Part shown: positions 1 through 16,415 of the stretch, piece after piece
Layout: each line of letters starts with the position of its first letter
How positions within the stretch are numbered: the stretch's first letter is position 1
Assembly: GCF_055900595.2 (NCBI RefSeq)
Contig: NZ_JBVWEU010000004.1
Length of the DNA stretch: 41,714 nt
Strand: one strand, 5' to 3'
Source of the DNA: a plasmid
Translations under genes and position numbers: made by a program
The notes under the pieces: model-generated
What the model was told of the DNA's origin: nothing
Seen by the model: only the letters and a program-made list of their open reading frames with translations
Databases searched by the model: none

Positions 1-867
1 ATGGGAAAGAGGTCAAGTTCAGTTCTCAATTATCCACTTGTGGATAAAGTGCAGATTTTTCCGGTGGATAAGTATCGCGATAGCTTGCAATTTCTGTTTT
101 CACTGTCATTATGGGTGGGTAAAAATTTACCCATAGGCATTGAAATGGATACTCAAGCACTCTTGCCAGCTACTAAAACGTTTAAAAAACGCGCCAGTAT
201 AAAGCAATCTAACGAATTGACCGAAGCTGCATATTACCTGCCTCTTCAGGCAAAACGTGTGCTGTGGTTATGCCTCATGCAGGCCTATTTTAATGACAGC
301 CAGGAAGATGACTCTGACGTATTGCCGCTCTTCAAAATCAGCGTTTCCGATTACGTCAAATACTTCAATGTCGCTACGTCTGTCGCCAGTCGTGATGTGA
401 AGGCTGGGGTAAATGCTCTGGGCGAATCAACGGTTACCTTTTATCCAAAAGAAGGTGAGTTTGAAGAAGTTAAACGTCCGTGGCTGGCTGAAGCAGGAAT
501 GAAGCGAGGCCGGGGTTCCTGGCAGATTGAATTTAACTACAAGGTCATGCCATTCCTGGTCGGCTTAACCTCCCAGTTCACTACCTATTCTCTCTATGAC
601 TGTGGCCAGCTTAATAGTGTTCGTGTCATCCGGCTTTATGAAAGCCTGTGTCAGTTCCGGAGCACTGGTGTCTGGATCACCACACATGACTGGTTATGTG
701 AAAGGTTTATGCTCCCTGCCTCGCAGAAAAACAATATTGCTGAAATGAAGCGTACCTTCCTGGAACCTGCTCTGAAGAAAATTAATGAGAAGACGCCATT
801 AAAGGTAACATATACCACTGAAGAAGATGGTCGCTTGCTGTTTAATTTTCTTGATAAAAAACAATAG
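1..867 (+). CDS. repA: Rep_3 family iteron-binding replication initiator (RepFIB-like), probably N-terminally partial at window edge
   Basis: 288-aa ORF starting at base 1. Its C-terminal third is about 60% identical to the rep fragment at 8449-8751. It is followed directly by 36-bp iterons. Confidence 0.75.
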   Translation: MGKRSSSVLNYPLVDKVQIFPVDKYRDSLQFLFSLSLWVGKNLPIGIEMDTQALLPATKTFKKRASIKQSNELTEAAYYLPLQAKRVLWLCLMQAYFNDSQEDDSDVLPLFKISVSDYVKYFNVATSVASRDVKAGVNALGESTVTFYPKEGEFEEVKRPWLAEAGMKRGRGSWQIEFNYKVMPFLVGLTSQFTTYSLYDCGQLNSVRVIRLYESLCQFRSTGVWITTHDWLCERFMLPASQKNNIAEMKRTFLEPALKKINEKTPLKVTYTTEEDGRLLFNFLDKKQ

Positions 868-5261: not shown

Positions 5262-5692
5262 CAGTACATCTCCCTCGGGCGGTGGATGATATGCGTGACG
5301 ACGCCAAAGATATCCAGCTCGTCGGGATCAGGATAAATCGGCGACCAGGAGGCATTCATGGGCTGCAGCGTCAGTCGCGGCGTCAGCAGAAGCCGTTTCA
5401 CCGTAAACTCCCCCTGCATGCTGGCGACAACGATATCGCCGTGCCGCGGCTTTTCAGCACTGTCCACAACCAGCAGATCGCCATTGTACAGACTGCCGTC
5501 GGCCATGCTGTCTCCGCTGGCACGCAGGTAGTACGTCGCGCTCGGATGCCGTATGCAGTAATCATGGAGATCCAGATCGGACTCGACATAGTCAGCAGCA
5601 GGGCTGGGAAAACCGCAGCTGGCCAGATCGGCAAACAATGGATGGGCCTGTGGCGGGAGTTCTTTCCCGGTGCTGAAAAGTTGTAGTTTCAT
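5261..5692 (-). CDS. umuD: UmuD (LexA-like S24 peptidase, Pol V accessory subunit)
   Basis: 143 aa from MKLQLF with an SG...K catalytic pattern. It overlaps umuC by 1 nt. RBS GGAGGAAAG lies upstream. The 270-aa ORF in the track is an upstream extension artefact. Confidence 0.9.
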
Positions 5693-8434: not shown

Positions 8435-8448
8435 GTTGGAGTCATTAC

Positions 8449-8751
8449 CAACCAGTTCACCACCTACTCGCTCCGCGATTGTGGCAGTCTTCGAAATCCC
8501 CGGACGATCCGCCTTTATGAAAGTCTTGCTCAATTCAAATCTTCAGGCTTATGGGTTACTACTCATGCTTGGTTAAATGACCGTTTCGTCTTACCGGAAT
8601 CCCAGCAGAAGAACTTGGCAGAGTTGAAACGATCTTTCCTTGATCCTGCACTCAAGCAGATAAATGAGAAAACACCTTTACTTGCTAAGTATAGTATTGA
8701 TGATTCAGGAAAATTTCTGTTCTCAATAATTGATAAGCAAAATCCCGTCTG
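8449..8751 (+). pseudogene. 3' fragment (about 100 codons) of a second Rep_3 initiator gene, truncated by IS1
   Basis: Translation QFTTYSLRDCGSLRNPRTIRLYESLAQFKSSGLWVTTHAWL...INEKTPLLAKYSIDDSGKFLFSIIDKQ aligns to the C-terminus of the rep gene at 1-867. Confidence 0.8.
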
Positions 8752-8794: not shown

Positions 8795-9165
8795 TCATGA
8801 AGATGGGCGGATTTCCACACAGCACCGGCGCCCGGTAAGGTGGGCGGATTCCCACACGGCACCGGCGCCCGGCAAGATGGGCGGATTTCCACACAGCACC
8901 GGCGCCCGGTAAGGTGGGCGGATTTCCACACAGCACCGGCGCCCGGCAAGGTGGGCGGATTCCCACACGGCACCGGCGCCCGGCAAGATGGGCGGATTTC
9001 CACACAGCACCGGCGCCCGGTAAGGTGGGCGGATTTCCACACAGCACCGGCGCCCGGCAAGGTGGGCGGATTCCCACACGGCACCGGCGCGCGGCAAGGT
9101 GGGCGGATTTCCACACGGCACCGGCGCCCGGCAAGGTGGGCCGATTCCCATATCGACATGTATGT
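8795..9165. repeat. Iteron array of the truncated replicon: ten 37-bp direct repeats (GGGCGGATTTCCACAC core)
   Basis: GGGCGG recurs at 8805, 8842, 8879 and so on to 9138. The long overlapping ORFs here are artefacts. Confidence 0.85.
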
Positions 9166-9631: not shown

Positions 9632-10698
9632 CAACACAGACGGCTTTGTTGAATAAATCGAACTTTTGCTGAGTTGAAGGATCAGATCACGCATCTTCCC
9701 GACAACGCAGACCATTCCGTGGCAAAGCAAAAGTTCAAAATAACCAACTGGCCCACCTACAATAAAGCCCTCATCAACCGTGGCTCCATAACTTTCTGGC
9801 TGGATGATGAAGCTATTCAGGCCTGGTATGAGTCGGCAACGCCTTCATCACGGGGAAGACCTCAGCGCTATTCTGATCTCGCCATCACCACCGTTCTGGT
9901 CATTAAACGCGTGTTCAGGTTGACCCTGCGGGCTGCACAGGGTTTTATTGATTCCATTTTTACACTGATGAATGTTCCGTTGCGCTGCCCGGATTACACC
10001 AGTGTCAGCAAGCGCGCAAAGTCGGTTAATGTCAGTTTCAAAACGTTCACCCGGGGTGAAATCGCGCATCTGGTGATTGATTCCACCGGGCTGAAGGTCT
10101 TTGGTGAAGGCGAATGGAAAGTCAAAAAGCATGGCCAGGAACGCCGTCGTATATGGCGAAAGTTGCATCTGGCAGTTGACAGCAACACACATGAAATCAT
10201 CTGTGCAAACCTGTCGCTGAACAATGTGACGGACTCAGAAGCCTTCCCGGGTCTTATCCGGCAGACTCACAGAAAAATCAGGGCAGCATCGGCAGACGGC
10301 GCTTACGACACCCAACTCTGTCACGATGAACTGCGGCGTAAGAAAATCAGCGCGCTTATCCCGCCCCGAAAAGGCGCGGGTTACTGGCCCGGTGAATATG
10401 CAGACCGTAACCGTGCTGTTGCGAATCAGCGGCTGACCGGGAGTAATGCGCGGTGGAAATGGACAACAGATTACAACCGTCGCTCGATAGCGGAAACGGC
10501 GATGTACCGGGTAAAACAGCTGTTCGGAGGTTCACTGACACTGCGTGACTACGATGGTCAGGTTGCAGAGGCTATGGCCCTGGTACGAGCGCTGAACAAA
10601 ATGACGAAAGCAGGTATGCCTGAAAGCGTGCGTATTGCCTGAAAACACAACCCGCTACGGGGGAGACTTACCCGAAATCTGATTTATTCAACAAAGCC
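9632..10698 (+). mobile_element. IS903-family (IS5 family) insertion sequence, complete
   Basis: IRs GGCTTTGTTGAATAAATCG at both ends enclose the transposase gene. No target duplication is present. Confidence 0.85.
9674..10642 (+). CDS. tnpA: IS903-type DDE transposase
   Basis: 322 aa, typical IS903/IS102 transposase sequence. Confidence 0.85.
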   Translation: MKDQITHLPDNADHSVAKQKFKITNWPTYNKALINRGSITFWLDDEAIQAWYESATPSSRGRPQRYSDLAITTVLVIKRVFRLTLRAAQGFIDSIFTLMNVPLRCPDYTSVSKRAKSVNVSFKTFTRGEIAHLVIDSTGLKVFGEGEWKVKKHGQERRRIWRKLHLAVDSNTHEIICANLSLNNVTDSEAFPGLIRQTHRKIRAASADGAYDTQLCHDELRRKKISALIPPRKGAGYWPGEYADRNRAVANQRLTGSNARWKWTTDYNRRSIAETAMYRVKQLFGGSLTLRDYDGQVAEAMALVRALNKMTKAGMPESVRIA

Positions 10699-10781
10699 GC
10701 GCGGGGCTAACAGGTAAGATGAAATTAAGGTTTTACGAACACTGCCACTGTAATTAATTACCGCTACTTTCATAAATCACC

Positions 10782-11168
10782 TCAGAATTTTTTGTTGAAC
10801 TTCTTAGGGTCGAAATTCTCACCGATTTTCTTGAAGAATTCTTTATCAATAATGCCGGGACTCTCTGCTTTTTTACTTTCCTGCACTTCAGGCTCAGACG
10901 GTTGTGTATTGTGCAATACACTTTCCGCTGCACCCTTCGCGCTACTCTTATCATGCGTATTGTGCAATACATTTTTTCGGTTTTGCCGCGTTCTATACAG
11001 TGCCATCTCAAGCCCTTTGGCTGTTACCGAAAAGCTGTATTCGCTGTCGAGGATTTCAGCAATTTCATGCCGCGTTAGCCCTCTGTCCAGCCAGTTCTCG
11101 ATTTCATTTAGGCGCAATCTGACAGCAGCCGATAAGTTGCGGGGTTTCAGATCTGCTGGTTTATTCAT
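10782..11168 (-). CDS. Small DNA-binding protein with an N-terminal HTH-like region and a disordered charged C-terminal tail; candidate StbA/ParR-like centromere-binding protein
   Basis: 128 aa with RBS GGAGGGGG. LTRHEIAEIL is HTH-like. An 11-bp direct-repeat array lies immediately upstream. The C-terminal 60 aa are low-complexity K/E/S-rich. Confidence 0.5.
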   Translation of the reverse strand: MNKPADLKPRNLSAAVRLRLNEIENWLDRGLTRHEIAEILDSEYSFSVTAKGLEMALYRTRQNRKNVLHNTHDKSSAKGAAESVLHNTQPSEPEVQESKKAESPGIIDKEFFKKIGENFDPKKFNKKF

Positions 11169-11221
11169 AACCCCCTCCGTTGTATGAAAATGACTCTACA
11201 ACACTCGTAAGAAGGGGTCAA

Positions 11222-11380
11222 TCGAGTTTTGTAGTTTATCTGTAGTTTTATTGTAGTCTATTTGTAGTCTGTCACGTTTTTTGTAGTTTATTTGTAGTTT
11301 TATTGTAGTCTATTTGTAGTCTTACAACACTAAGGCAAAACGTTTTTTGTAGTTTATCTGTAGTTTATCTGTAGTTTTTG
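11222..11380. repeat. Eleven copies of an 11-bp direct repeat TGTAGTYTATY in three clusters (4+4+3). The first two clusters form a 52-bp higher-order repeat.
   Basis: TGTAGT at 11230, 11241, 11252, 11263, 11282, 11293, 11304, 11315, 11348, 11359 and 11370. Confidence 0.85.
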
Positions 11381-11388
11381 GTTGCTCA

Positions 11389-11412
11389 GATGGTCATGCA
11401 AGCATGACCATC
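11389..11412. promoter_or_regulatory. Perfect 11-bp inverted repeat GATGGTCATGC-aa-GCATGACCATC
   Basis: Palindrome directly after the repeat array. It may be an operator or a terminator hairpin. Confidence 0.5.
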
Positions 11413-11716
11413 AAAGAATAGGACGCTTTTTAGCCAAATGCCCCTTAACCTACGGAGATCGCCCTACCAAAAAAAGATGATTTTTTATCCCTTAACCTGC
11501 TATACACCTAACGCAGCGTGATAAATCACGCTATCGCACTGATTTAAAAGAAAAAAAACAAAATTTAGCCATGCTGCGGTATTACCCAGGTATTACAAAT
11601 CAAATCTAAATTACTGATTTAAATAACTTTTTATTTATTACTTTGGTAATACTATGATTTCACCGTATTAGACACCCTTTTTTCGTTTAAAAAATGCACA
11701 AATTGAGGACTGAATG

Positions 11717-11982
11717 GGCTTTGTTGAATAAATCGAACTTTTGCTGAGTTGAAGGATCAGATCACGCATCTTCCCGACAACGCAGACCGTTCCGTGGCAA
11801 AGCAAAAGTTCAAAATAACCAACTGGCCCACCTACAATAAAGCCCTCATCAACCGTGGCTCCATAACTTTCTGGCTGGATGATGAAGCTATTCAGGCCTG
11901 GTATGAGTCAGCAACACCTTCTTCACGAGGCAGACCTCAGCGCTATTCTGACCTTGCCATCACGACTGTGCTGGTCATTAAG
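11717..11982 (+). mobile_element. Partial IS903 copy (left 266 bp) in the same orientation as the 9632 copy, truncated by the Tn1721 IR
   Basis: Near-identical to 9632-9900. The sequence switches to GGGGAGCCCGCAGAATTCGG at 11983. Confidence 0.85.
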
Positions 11983-12020
11983 GGGAGCCCGCAGAATTCG
12001 GAAAAAATCGTACGCTAAGG
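11983..12020. repeat. Tn1721-type 38-bp terminal inverted repeat (IRR)
   Basis: GGGGAGCCCGCAGAATTCGGAAAAAATCGTACGCTAAG. Confidence 0.9.
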
Positions 12021-13772
12021 TTTTCCGGGCATCCGTAAGGGCCGAAACTTCCCGTCTTCCAGTCTGCGGCTCTGCCGCCAGACGTAATCGCCGGTTAGGT
12101 TGATGTGCTCCCAGCCCAGCGGCGACAGGAATTGCAGCAGCTCGCCGTCCACCGGCTTGCCGGCCTCGACCAACCCCTGGGTGGCGCGTTCCAGGTACAC
12201 CGTGTTCCACAGCACGATAGCCGCCGTCACCAGGTTGAGGCCGCTGGCCCGGTAGCGCTGCTGCTCGAAGCTCCGATCCCTGATTTCCCCAAGGCGGTTG
12301 AAGAACACCGCCCTGGCCAGCGAGTTGCGCGCCTCACCTTTGTTCAGGCCGGCATGCACGCGGCGGCGCAGTTCAACACTTTGCAGCCAGTCCAGGATGA
12401 ACAGCGTGCGCTCGATCCGGCCCAGCTCGCGCAGGGCCACGGCCAGTCCGTTCTGGCGCGGGTAGCTGCCGAGCTTGCGCAGCATCAGCGAGGCGGTGAC
12501 GGTGCCCTGCTTGATCGAGCTGGCCAGGCGCAGGATGTCGTCCCAGTGGGCACGCACGTGCTTGATGTTCAGGGTGCCGCCGATCAGCGGGCGCAACGTC
12601 GGGTAGGCTTGCACGCCCTGCGGCACGTACAGCTTGGTTTCGCCGAGGTCGCGGATGCGCGGCGCGAAGCGGAAGCCTAGCAGGTGCATCAGGGCAAAGA
12701 CGTGATCGGTGAAGCCGGCCGTGTCGGTGTAGTGCTCCTCGATCCGCAGGTCGGACTCGTGGTACAGCAGGCCGTCGAGCACATAGGTGGAATCGCGGAC
12801 GCCGACATTCACCACGCGGGTGCTGAACGGCGCGTACTGGTCGGAGATATGGGTATAGAACAGCCGTCCCGGCTCGCTACCGTACTTCGGGTTGACGTGC
12901 CCGGTGCTCTCGCCCCGGCCACCCGCGCGGAAGCGCTGGCCATCGGAGGATGAGGTCGTGCCGTCGCCCCAGTGGGCGGCAAAGGCGTGGCGATACTGGT
13001 GGTTGACCAGCTCGGCCAAGGCCGCCGAATAGGTTTCGTCGCGGATGTGCCAGGCTTGCAGCCAGGACAGCTTGGCGTAGGTCAGGCCGGGGCTCGACTC
13101 GGCCATCTTGGTCAGCCCGAGGTTGATCGCATCACCGAGGATTGCGGACAGCAGCAACGTCCTGTCTTTGGCCTCGGCCCCGTCCTTCAAGTGGGTGAAG
13201 TGGCGGCTGAAGCCCGTCCAGTCGTCCACGTCCATCAGCAGTTCGGTGATCTTGATGCGCGGCAGTAACTGGCTGGTTTGGTCGATCAGCGCCTGCGCCC
13301 GATCCGGCACCGCCGCATCCAGCGGGGTGATTTTCAGCCCTGACTCGGTGAGGATGGCATCGGGCAGCTCGTTGTCCTTGGCCAGGCGGGTGACGGTGGC
13401 CAACTGCTCGTCCAGCAGCTGCAAACGCTCTTCCAGGTACTGGTCGCTGTTCGGGTTGATCGCCAGGGGCAGGGCCTGCTCGCGCTTGAGTGCGGCGAAC
13501 TTCTCGGCCGGCAGCAGGTAGTCGTCGAAGTCGCGGAACTGCCGCGAGCCCTTGACCCAGATGTCGCCGGAGCGCAGGGCGTTCTTCAGCTCGGACAGGG
13601 CGCAGATTTCGTAGAATTTCCGGTCGAGGCCTTCCGGGGTGATCACCAGCGGCTTCCAGCGCGGCTTGATGAAGGCCGTGGGTGCATCGGCCGGCACCTT
13701 GCGCAGGTTGTCGGCGTTCATCTCACGCAGGGTCTGCACGGCTGCCAGCACGCCTTGCGCGGCCGGCCCGTG
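12015..13772 (-). pseudogene. delta-tnpA: duplicated 3' portion (about 585 codons) of the Tn1721 transposase gene
   Basis: Identical to the C-terminal part of the full tnpA at 22783-24200. Identity is lost upstream of about 13772. Confidence 0.85.
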
Positions 13773-13899
13773 CTGTTCCCCAACTTTTCGCTCGGCGAAG
13801 AGTATGAACATGCGCCGCCGGCGACGAATCGCCAAATCTCACCGTATCTCCCGAGCGGACGATTTCGCACCGGTCTGCCCGTCGAAGGGCTTGCGATCG

Positions 13900-15215: not shown

Positions 15216-16415
15216 TCAGCGATCGGCTCGTTGCCCTGCGCCGCTCCAAAGCCCGCGACGCAGCGCCGGCAGGCAGAGCAAGTAGAGGGCAGCGCCTGCA
15301 ATCCATGCCCACCCGTTCCACGTTGTTATAGAAGCCGCATAGATCGCCGTGAAGAGGAGGGGTCCGACGATCGAGGTCAGGCTGGTGAGCGCCGCCAGTG
15401 AGCCTTGCAGCTGCCCCTGACGTTCCTCATCCACCTGCCTGGACAACATTGCTTGCAGCGCCGGCATTCCGATGCCACCCGAAGCAAGCAGGACCATGAT
15501 CGGGAACGCCATCCATCCCCGTGTCGCGAAGGCAAGCAGGATGTAGCCTGTGCCGTCGGCAATCATTCCGAGCATGAGTGCCCGCCTTTCGCCGAGCCGG
15601 GCGGCTACAGGGCCGGTGATCATTGCCTGGGCGAGTGAATGCAGAATGCCAAATGCGGCAAGCGAAATGCCGATCGTGGTCGCGTCCCAGTGAAAGCGAT
15701 CCTCGCCGAAAATGACCCAAAGCGCGGCCGGCACCTGTCCGACAAGTTGCATGATGAAGAAGACCGCCATCAGGGCGGCGACGACGGTCATGCCCCGGGC
15801 CCACCGGAACGAAGCGAGCGGGTTGAGAGCCTCCCGGCGTAACGGCCGGCGTTCGCCTTTGTGCGACTCCGGCAAAAGGAAACAGCCCGTCAGGAAATTG
15901 AGGCCGTTCAAGGCTGCCGCGGCGAAGAACGGAGCGTGGGGGGAGAAACCGCCCATCAGCCCACCGAGCACAGGTCCCGCGACCATCCCGAACCCGAAAC
16001 AGGCGCTCATGAAGCCGAAGTGCCGCGCGCGCTCATCGCCATCAGTGATATCGGCAATATAAGCGCCGGCTACCGCCCCAGTCGCCCCGGTGATGCCGGC
16101 CACGATCCGCCCGATATAGAGAACCCAAAGGAAAGGCGTCGTCGCCATGATGGCGTAGTCGACAGCAGCGCCGGCCAGCGAGACGAGCAAGACCGGCCGC
16201 CGCCCGAAACGATCCGACAGCGCGCCCAGCACAGGTGCGCAGGCAAATTGCATCAACGCATACAGCGCCAGCAGAATGCCATAGTGGGCGGTGACGTCGT
16301 TCGAGTGAACCAGATCGCGCAGGAGGCCCGGCAGCACCGGCATAATCAGGCCGATGCCGACAGCGTCGAGCGCGACAGTGCTCAGAATTACGATCAGGGG
16401 TCTGTTGGGTTTCAC
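15216..16415 (-). CDS. tetA: Tetracycline efflux MFS transporter TetA, class A
   Basis: 399 aa from the GTG (VKPNRPLIVILSTVALDAVGIG...). It is divergent from tetR. Confidence 0.92.
   Translation of the reverse strand: MKPNRPLIVILSTVALDAVGIGLIMPVLPGLLRDLVHSNDVTAHYGILLALYALMQFACAPVLGALSDRFGRRPVLLVSLAGAAVDYAIMATTPFLWVLYIGRIVAGITGATGAVAGAYIADITDGDERARHFGFMSACFGFGMVAGPVLGGLMGGFSPHAPFFAAAALNGLNFLTGCFLLPESHKGERRPLRREALNPLASFRWARGMTVVAALMAVFFIMQLVGQVPAALWVIFGEDRFHWDATTIGISLAAFGILHSLAQAMITGPVAARLGERRALMLGMIADGTGYILLAFATRGWMAFPIMVLLASGGIGMPALQAMLSRQVDEERQGQLQGSLAALTSLTSIVGPLLFTAIYAASITTWNGWAWIAGAALYLLCLPALRRGLWSGAGQRADR

Follow-up and report, generated by a model that had tools for sequence, protein, structure and literature searches.

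The StbA-stbDR/stbS system of the incompatibility group (Inc) W plasmid R388 and the stbABC-origin of transfer (oriT) region of the IncN plasmids R46, pKM101 and pCU1 are the described systems to which we compare positions 10699-11716 of a plasmid DNA stretch of 41,714 nucleotides (NCBI RefSeq assembly GCF_055900595.2, contig NZ_JBVWEU010000004.1; hereafter, the whole stretch is called the window). In R388, StbA binds the stbDRs, which are sets of direct repeats with an 11-bp phase around the stbA promoter, and StbA together with the stbDRs is enough for plasmid stability without StbB (PMC3098194). Conjugation is inhibited by StbA, and it requires StbB only if StbA is there (PMC3098194; bioRxiv 10.1101/2022.04.29.490116). 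The two-domain layout of R388 StbA was found experimentally; the binding activity resides in the N-terminal helix-turn-helix (HTH) domain, and one dimer is bound per two repeats (bioRxiv 10.1101/2022.04.29.490116). The IncN region is the direct homologue and the source lineage of the window segment; in R46, traI-traJ-traK lie on one strand and stbA-stbB-stbC on the other, with an intergenic region of 512 bp. The ParR-parC system of plasmid R1 is similar by analogy only, in that a small autoregulated adaptor acts on phased direct repeats overlapping its own promoter; ParR is a ribbon-helix-helix protein with the actin-like ParM, whereas the window StbA has an HTH and is natively paired with a Walker-type ATPase. 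The segment 10699-11716 is very probably a leading/transfer-origin fragment of an IncN plasmid that is now carried by an IncR resistance plasmid and is delimited by two insertions of the insertion sequence (IS) IS903. Its order is stbB' - stbA - stbA promoter - stbDR-type array - palindrome - oriT - traK ATG (Table 1). The element is already known: hundreds of plasmid records carry its annotation, and publications have mentioned it.

Table 1. Features of the segment and of the IS903 copies at its borders (positions in the window)
Feature	Position	Strand	Remarks
Complete IS903-family IS, 1057 bp	9642-10698	+	322-aa transposase (9674-10642); truncates stbB
stbB remnant, first 25 codons (MKVAVINYSGSVRKTLISSYLLAPR)	10699-10773	-	ParA/MinD-like ATPase; NF041292
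stbA, intact, 128 aa	10782-11168	-	NF041290 match; HTH domain at about residues 11-70
Predicted stbA promoter, TTGACC-17 nt-TAGAGT	11193-11221	-	Between array and ORF, directed at ORF
stbDR-type array, eleven TGTAGTYTNNN direct repeats (4+4+3)	11230-11380	+	11-bp phase
Repeat cluster 1	11230-11273	+	4 copies, exact 11-bp spacing
Repeat cluster 2	11282-11325	+	4 copies, exact 11-bp spacing
Repeat cluster 3	11348-11380	+	3 copies, exact 11-bp spacing
Perfect 11-bp palindrome, GATGGTCATGC nn GCATGACCATC	11389-11412		Arms 11389-11399 / 11402-11412, 2-nt spacer
IncN oriT	11413-11713	-	Homology to R46 oriT; AT-rich distal part
traK start codon	11714-11716	+	Sole remainder of the traK-traJ-traI operon (relaxosome accessory gene); R46 and L015 homology
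Second IS903, 5' 265 bp	11717-11981	+	IS903B-type variant; same orientation as the first

The 128-aa open reading frame (ORF) encodes StbA, with an N-terminal tri-helical HTH domain, a disordered linker containing VLHNT repeats and a conserved C-terminal tail. The protein belongs to the NCBIfam equivalog NF041290 (StbA_2, 'plasmid stabilization protein StbA'; E = 7.8e-61, 204 bits with a cut-off of 100), as does StbA of R46, and R388 StbA matches this model weakly. In PLSDB, 532 plasmids contain the 1018-bp segment with an identity of at least 99%, and their annotation names the gene stbA. StbA homologues carry the precomputed Pfam assignment PF28167 (StbA-like); our own Pfam scan of the 128-aa protein gave a sub-threshold Clr5 match only, and it gave no StbA family for the window, R46 or R388 StbA. 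A ribosome-binding site (GGAGGGGG) is located upstream of the ATG. Its strength had been pointed out in an earlier reading of the DNA made without database searches (the sequence-only reading), which had also proposed an HTH-like N-terminal region and a disordered C-terminal part. Both regions were recovered in an AlphaFold2 (AF2) model built with 15 homologues: the predicted local distance difference test (pLDDT) score was >90 for residues 11-60 (block-mean 90 or more) and <50 for residues 74-105, and helices were placed at residues 12-18, 20-28, 33-44 and 50-74, with a short C-terminal helix after the disordered part. The search against the StbA fold that had been suggested with the sequence-only reading was performed with Foldseek, and the top match in the PDB was 7pc1, the R388 StbA DNA-binding domain (probability 0.99, root-mean-square deviation 1.9 A, 54 columns, 28% identity). 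BLASTP between the two proteins aligned the same stretch of 57 residues with 30% identity (E = 7e-5), so that the DNA-binding domains are only about 30% identical. The two proteins have in common their small size, the tri-helical HTH at the N-terminus and the disorder of the C-terminal part, in agreement with the layout of R388 StbA. A sequence search of the PDB missed R388 StbA and gave only a spurious match to bS20, so that the fold search was needed. The VLHNT peptide repeats in the linker are encoded by a near-palindromic 14-mer, GTATTGTGCAATAC, at 10906-10919 and 10957-10970, and their copy number is 1 to 4 across the homologues. Similarity between R46 and the window resumes at the first VLHNT-coding repeat, which suggests a hotspot of recombination or slippage.

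The sequence TGTAGTYT occurs 12 times in the window (1.28 expected), a count that was attained in 0 of 100 shuffles, and 11 of the 12 copies are located on the plus strand within 11230-11377, in three clusters of 4, 4 and 3. The phasing described in the sequence-only reading, eleven repeats upstream of the intact ORF, was exact. The same is true for its 52-bp higher-order repeat and its third cluster of three: a 44-nt unit covers clusters 1 and 2, the second copy lying 52 bp on with 98% identity, and cluster 3 lies 66 bp (6 x 11) from cluster 2, in the exact 11-bp register. A TGTAGTYT array with 12 repeats is present in the native conjugative IncN plasmid pRHBSTW-00140_3. The repeat of R388 is TTGCATCAT, and it is arranged in two sets of five rather than in three clusters. 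The array, whose repeats keep the 11-bp phase, ends 9 bp upstream of the -35 box of the predicted stbA promoter, which is the only sigma-70-like site in 10650-11760. This site is kept in the native IncN plasmid L015, and its -10 box overlaps the inverted repeat-like element TGTAGAGT. It probably works as the stbA promoter, and the array, by analogy with R388, would provide the binding sites of StbA and serve as both centromere and operator. Only one additional array-type site, TGTAGTTT at 5682, was found by scanning the window, and none was found beyond the array in a 9-kb native IncN locus; thus, there is no sign of other StbA-regulated promoters in the DNA examined. Note that the 9-mer TACAACACT is present twice, at 11195-11205 (over the predicted -10 box) and at 11321-11331 (between clusters 2 and 3 of the repeats). 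Its sequence on the stbA strand is AGTGTTGTA, with the repeat core inverted; it may serve as a half-site of an operator or as a further promoter-like element.

The palindrome lies where the repeat array meets oriT, and R388 likewise has a palindrome between these two elements. The perfect palindrome and the AT-rich tract had been seen in the sequence-only reading, and both descriptions were accurate (G+C content, 33.6% at 11413-11716 and 27.1% at 11540-11716, versus 53.7% for the whole window); the reading had, however, left them unexplained. From the homology to R46, the palindrome and the AT-rich tract can be identified as the IncN oriT. Identity to the R46 oriT is 80-97% in 40-nt windows, with a peak of 95-97% around 11481-11540, and it is 88-97% in the oriT core. 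Within oriT, an 8-bp hairpin repeat (AGCGTGAT-TT-ATCACGCT, 11516-11533) is followed by GCGTTAGGTGTATAGCAGGTTAAGGGATA; conservation extends to this hairpin and to the motif GGTGTATAGC. The motif GT.T|ATAGC...TTAAGGGATA parallels the R388 nic region, GTCT|ATAGCCCAGATTTAAGGATA, and the GCGTTAGGTGTATAGCAGGTTAAGGGATA region resembles the sequence GGTGCGTATTGTCTATAGCCCAGATTTAAGGATA around the R388 nic site. We placed nic in the window by alignment with R388; the predicted nick is at GGTGT/ATAGC (11499-11508), with the minus strand as the probable transferred strand. The layout of hairpin, TAG, pentanucleotide and nic is that of the pCU1 relaxase substrate as described (PMC2943615). StbC, TraK, TraJ and TraI are not encoded in the window; the cognate relaxase and accessory genes are thus missing in cis (no TraI, TraJ or TraK), and the oriT segment is not a self-sufficient transfer origin.

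The IncN origin of the segment is seen at both of its ends. The 25 codons next to the complete IS903 match the NCBIfam StbB family NF041292 (E = 1.5e-8), and a tblastn search with residues 1-25 of R46 StbB gave 96% identity to them. The homology to R46 ends 75 nt into stbB, exactly at the right end of the complete IS903, and the other limit of the homology to R46 and L015 is the traK ATG, directly adjoining the left end of the partial IS903; the segment is exactly the DNA between the two IS903 copies. The sequence-only reading had noted that the partner ATPase gene is missing and that IS903 is in its place. This was borne out by the 25 stbB codons, and the comparison with intact plasmids that it had called for showed that stbB and stbC follow stbA in the IncN loci. 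The window has no complete stbABC operon (25 codons of stbB, and stbC absent), whereas both genes are present in the native IncN loci. The plasmid pRHBSTW-00140_3 has the R46-like gene order with the stbA allele and the repeat type of the window. In R388, too, the stbA region is located between oriT and stbB/stbC and is divergent from the relaxosome operon; in the window, stbB, stbC and the relaxosome genes were removed by IS903. In the stbB remnant, Arg replaces the conserved Gly of the Walker A motif (G13R, GSVGKT to GSVRKT). Locus L011 shares this substitution, and the remnant there has been called as a 29-aa ORF reading into IS903.

The same evidence bears on the possibility that the locus is a type II centromere like ParR/parC (a ribbon-helix-helix protein with an actin-like ATPase) or an array of replication iterons. 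A small basic protein beside phased direct repeats and AT-rich DNA has the general look of such a locus. On the other hand, the protein is all-helical with the HTH fold of StbA, the downstream remnant belongs to StbB (a Walker-type ATPase), the native locus adjoins relaxosome genes and no rep gene, and the true IncN iterons are unrelated 37-bp repeats at 8800-9150. We regard this explanation as hardly conceivable. The sequence-only reading had proposed a module like StbA or ParR; the first part stood (NF041290, fold and public annotation), and the type II part failed on the HTH and on the Walker ATPase partner. It had also allowed that intact loci might show the repeats to belong to an unrelated operator or a replication origin; a relaxosome/stb context was found there instead, and the replication-iteron and phage-operator readings were rejected by this native IncN context.

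IS903 is present on both sides in the same orientation, as the sequence-only reading stated. The complete copy has perfect 18-bp terminal inverted repeats (GGCTTTGTTGAATAAATC) at both ends, and it is annotated as an IS5-family/IS903B transposase in the matching plasmids. The 9-mers flanking it differ (AACACAGAC / GCGCGGGGC); thus, it is not at a simple insertion site. The second copy is cut by a Tn3-family 38-bp terminal repeat, GGGGAGCCCGCAGAATTCGGAAAAAATCGTACGCTAAG, from 11982. The transposase ORF that follows (12015-13835, 606 aa) covers no more of the Tn3 transposase model than positions 384-954, so that its reading frame is incomplete. With this arrangement, the 1-kb unit could be taken for the cargo of an IS903 composite or pseudo-composite transposon that moves between replicons. 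The directly oriented pair flanks the unit, the complete form of the right copy is present in other plasmids, and IncR, IncX1 and IncFIB/IncR plasmids as well as chromosomal contigs contain the unit. We compared flanks and searched with a synthetic 3132-bp query consisting of the segment with both IS903 copies complete. The both-complete form is common, as at least 80% of the query was covered by 510 records. However, four plasmids having it showed no 9-bp target duplication (AACACAGAC vs CGTAGGCAA), their outer flanks were identical, and they gave no sign of insertion at different sites, and the composite-transposon reading was rejected on these grounds. In addition, the right copy in the window is cut at 11981, so that the outer ends for composite transposition are absent; the two copies, with an identity of only 95.8% in the part common to both, represent different variants; the other contexts have larger blocks in common, including TnAs1/tetA; and L011 has the same IS903-stbB junction with traK-traJ-traI intact beside it, which implies two separate IS insertion or deletion events. 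A transposon origin is thus very unlikely, and the pseudo-composite mobility suggested in the sequence-only reading was not upheld.

The fragment also occurs in contigs of chromosome size. The 128-aa StbA with its flanks was found, exact, in contigs of 4.9-5.7 Mb from several assemblies (L005, L007, L008, L009, L012, L013 and L014), where various IS elements and resistance genes adjoin it; thus, the IncN fragment has also been carried into chromosomes or plasmid-chromosome cointegrates. Two other truncations were seen: in L016, stbB' is 63 aa long and traK runs for about 200 nt before IS26 cuts it, and in L013 traK' is cut by IS1. That stbA, array and oriT were kept more than once may be a hint of usefulness, although it is no proof.

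The comparison with R46 separates the segment into a replaced part and a conserved part. R46 has 13 repeats of the TACAWCA type with the 11-bp phase at the same place; a 1987 paper by Coupland et al. reportedly describes 13 direct repeats of 11 bp in the oriT of R46. DNA identity between R46 and the window is 30-47% over the array, the promoter and the region coding for the StbA N-domain. The whole StbA proteins are 50% identical, with the matches mostly in the C-terminal tail. The oriT core, as given above, is conserved, as are the region coding for the StbA C-terminal tail and the 5' end of stbB (80-100%). R46, with its strongly diverged N-domain and other repeat type, thus represents a second specificity allele. 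The DNA-binding domain and the presumed sites have been replaced together within conserved surroundings, as predicted for a cognate protein-site pair, and this co-variation indirectly supports recognition of the TGTAGTYT repeats by StbA. The two alleles constitute a ready-made pair for specificity swaps. The conserved C-terminal tail of StbA is, speculatively, a candidate contact for the conserved StbB. The palindrome was also compared (window 11389-11412 with L002 20296-20319 and L018 about 16267-16289). Three arm positions are changed relative to R46, and each change is compensated in the opposite arm, so that symmetry is kept. Plasmids with one or the other allele type hardly differ in TraK (99% identity) and StbB (96%); thus, the palindrome tracks the StbA allele and not TraK.

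These data can be extended to a tentative joint reading, in which the IncN StbA specificity units are swappable cassettes and, at the same time, the orphan IncR copy is kept for anchoring and for a helper-dependent oriT; taken as a whole, we consider it rather improbable. For the first part, there may be at least two interchangeable units, each consisting of the StbA DNA-binding domain, the 11-bp repeats and the palindrome, and their exchange may take place by recombination, with the oriT-side palindrome and the near-palindromic VLHNT-coding repeats in stbA as the two sites. If this is true, a cassette swap would let near-identical plasmids escape mutual partition or regulatory cross-talk. For the second part, the copy without StbB may be kept on IncR plasmids for ATPase-independent anchoring, with an oriT that depends on the StbB of an incoming IncN helper; IncR plasmids would then be conditional hitch-hikers of IncN conjugation.

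What the fragment could do on its present host was considered by homology to R388. StbA would bind successive direct repeats on the same face of the DNA cooperatively through its N-terminal HTH, with approximately one dimer per two repeats. The resulting nucleoprotein complex would repress the stbA promoter, would act as a centromere-like site that places plasmid copies on the nucleoid without a plasmid ATPase, and would restrain conjugation from the adjacent oriT. A co-resident IncN plasmid could mobilise the IncR plasmid through the cis-acting oriT. With stbB, stbC and traKJI gone, at most StbA-dependent stabilisation, autoregulation and a cis-acting oriT are left; with stbA, promoter, array and oriT core intact, autoregulation, stabilisation and mobilisation in trans remain possible. 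The segment is thus a natural case in which StbA and its centromere are kept without the ATPase, and it fits the stabilisation by StbA and stbDRs in R388. It leaves the current understanding of plasmid partition unchanged; its value is practical rather than conceptual.

Several points weigh against the interpretation of the fragment as a functional StbA-centromere module of the R388 kind. For 7pc1, Foldseek gave a weak E-value (0.26), though the entry was ranked first with the probability given above; the domain is small (60 residues), which accounts for this value. In the IncN plasmid pKM101, according to work cited in PMC3098194, the stb genes were tied to instability only in recombination-proficient hosts; the partition role known from IncW may thus apply to IncN only in part. 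The literature consulted gave no binding, stability or mobilisation experiment on this StbA allele. The near-100% identity of hundreds of copies results from recent spread and says nothing on selection for function. Finally, the IncR plasmid has its own ParAB, so that StbA may be dispensable there.

The last point leads to the explanation that the segment is inert debris of IncN-IncR recombination between ISs, in which StbA, repeats and oriT add nothing to the IncR plasmid, even if stbA is expressed. As the host owns ParAB, the StbA module is accessory and may be a retained remnant only. The surroundings are a patchwork of ISs and transposons with another IncN remnant (delta-repA and iterons), the stbB remnant has the Walker A substitution, and the outer flanks are identical in many IncR plasmids, which indicates vertical inheritance and not repeated acquisition. 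Against these observations stand the intactness of stbA, promoter, array and oriT core, the at least two independently truncated versions (L016 and L013) that keep exactly this core, and experiments in which IncR plasmids with an oriT were mobilised by co-resident conjugative helper plasmids (PMC12607884; the oriT used was not mapped there). On balance, we find complete inertness somewhat unlikely. IncR plasmids with the fragment are typed as 'mobilizable' by MOB-suite in spite of having no relaxase; the IncN fragment explains this typing of relaxase-less IncR resistance plasmids, and it predicts IncN plasmids as helpers.

The closest relatives of the window in PLSDB are Klebsiella IncR plasmids. 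The window codes for an initiator of the IncR type and for a ParA and a ParB of its own; UmuDC and a group II intron reverse transcriptase are encoded as well. The second IncN remnant is located to the left of the complete IS903. It contains the 3' third of repA (8444-8749, 98% identical to amino acids 138-239 of R46 RepA) and 9.5 copies of the 37-bp IncN iteron at 8800-9150. The orphan iteron array might titrate initiators or cross-react with them. The IncR initiator of the window (1-867) is 57% identical to IncN RepA.

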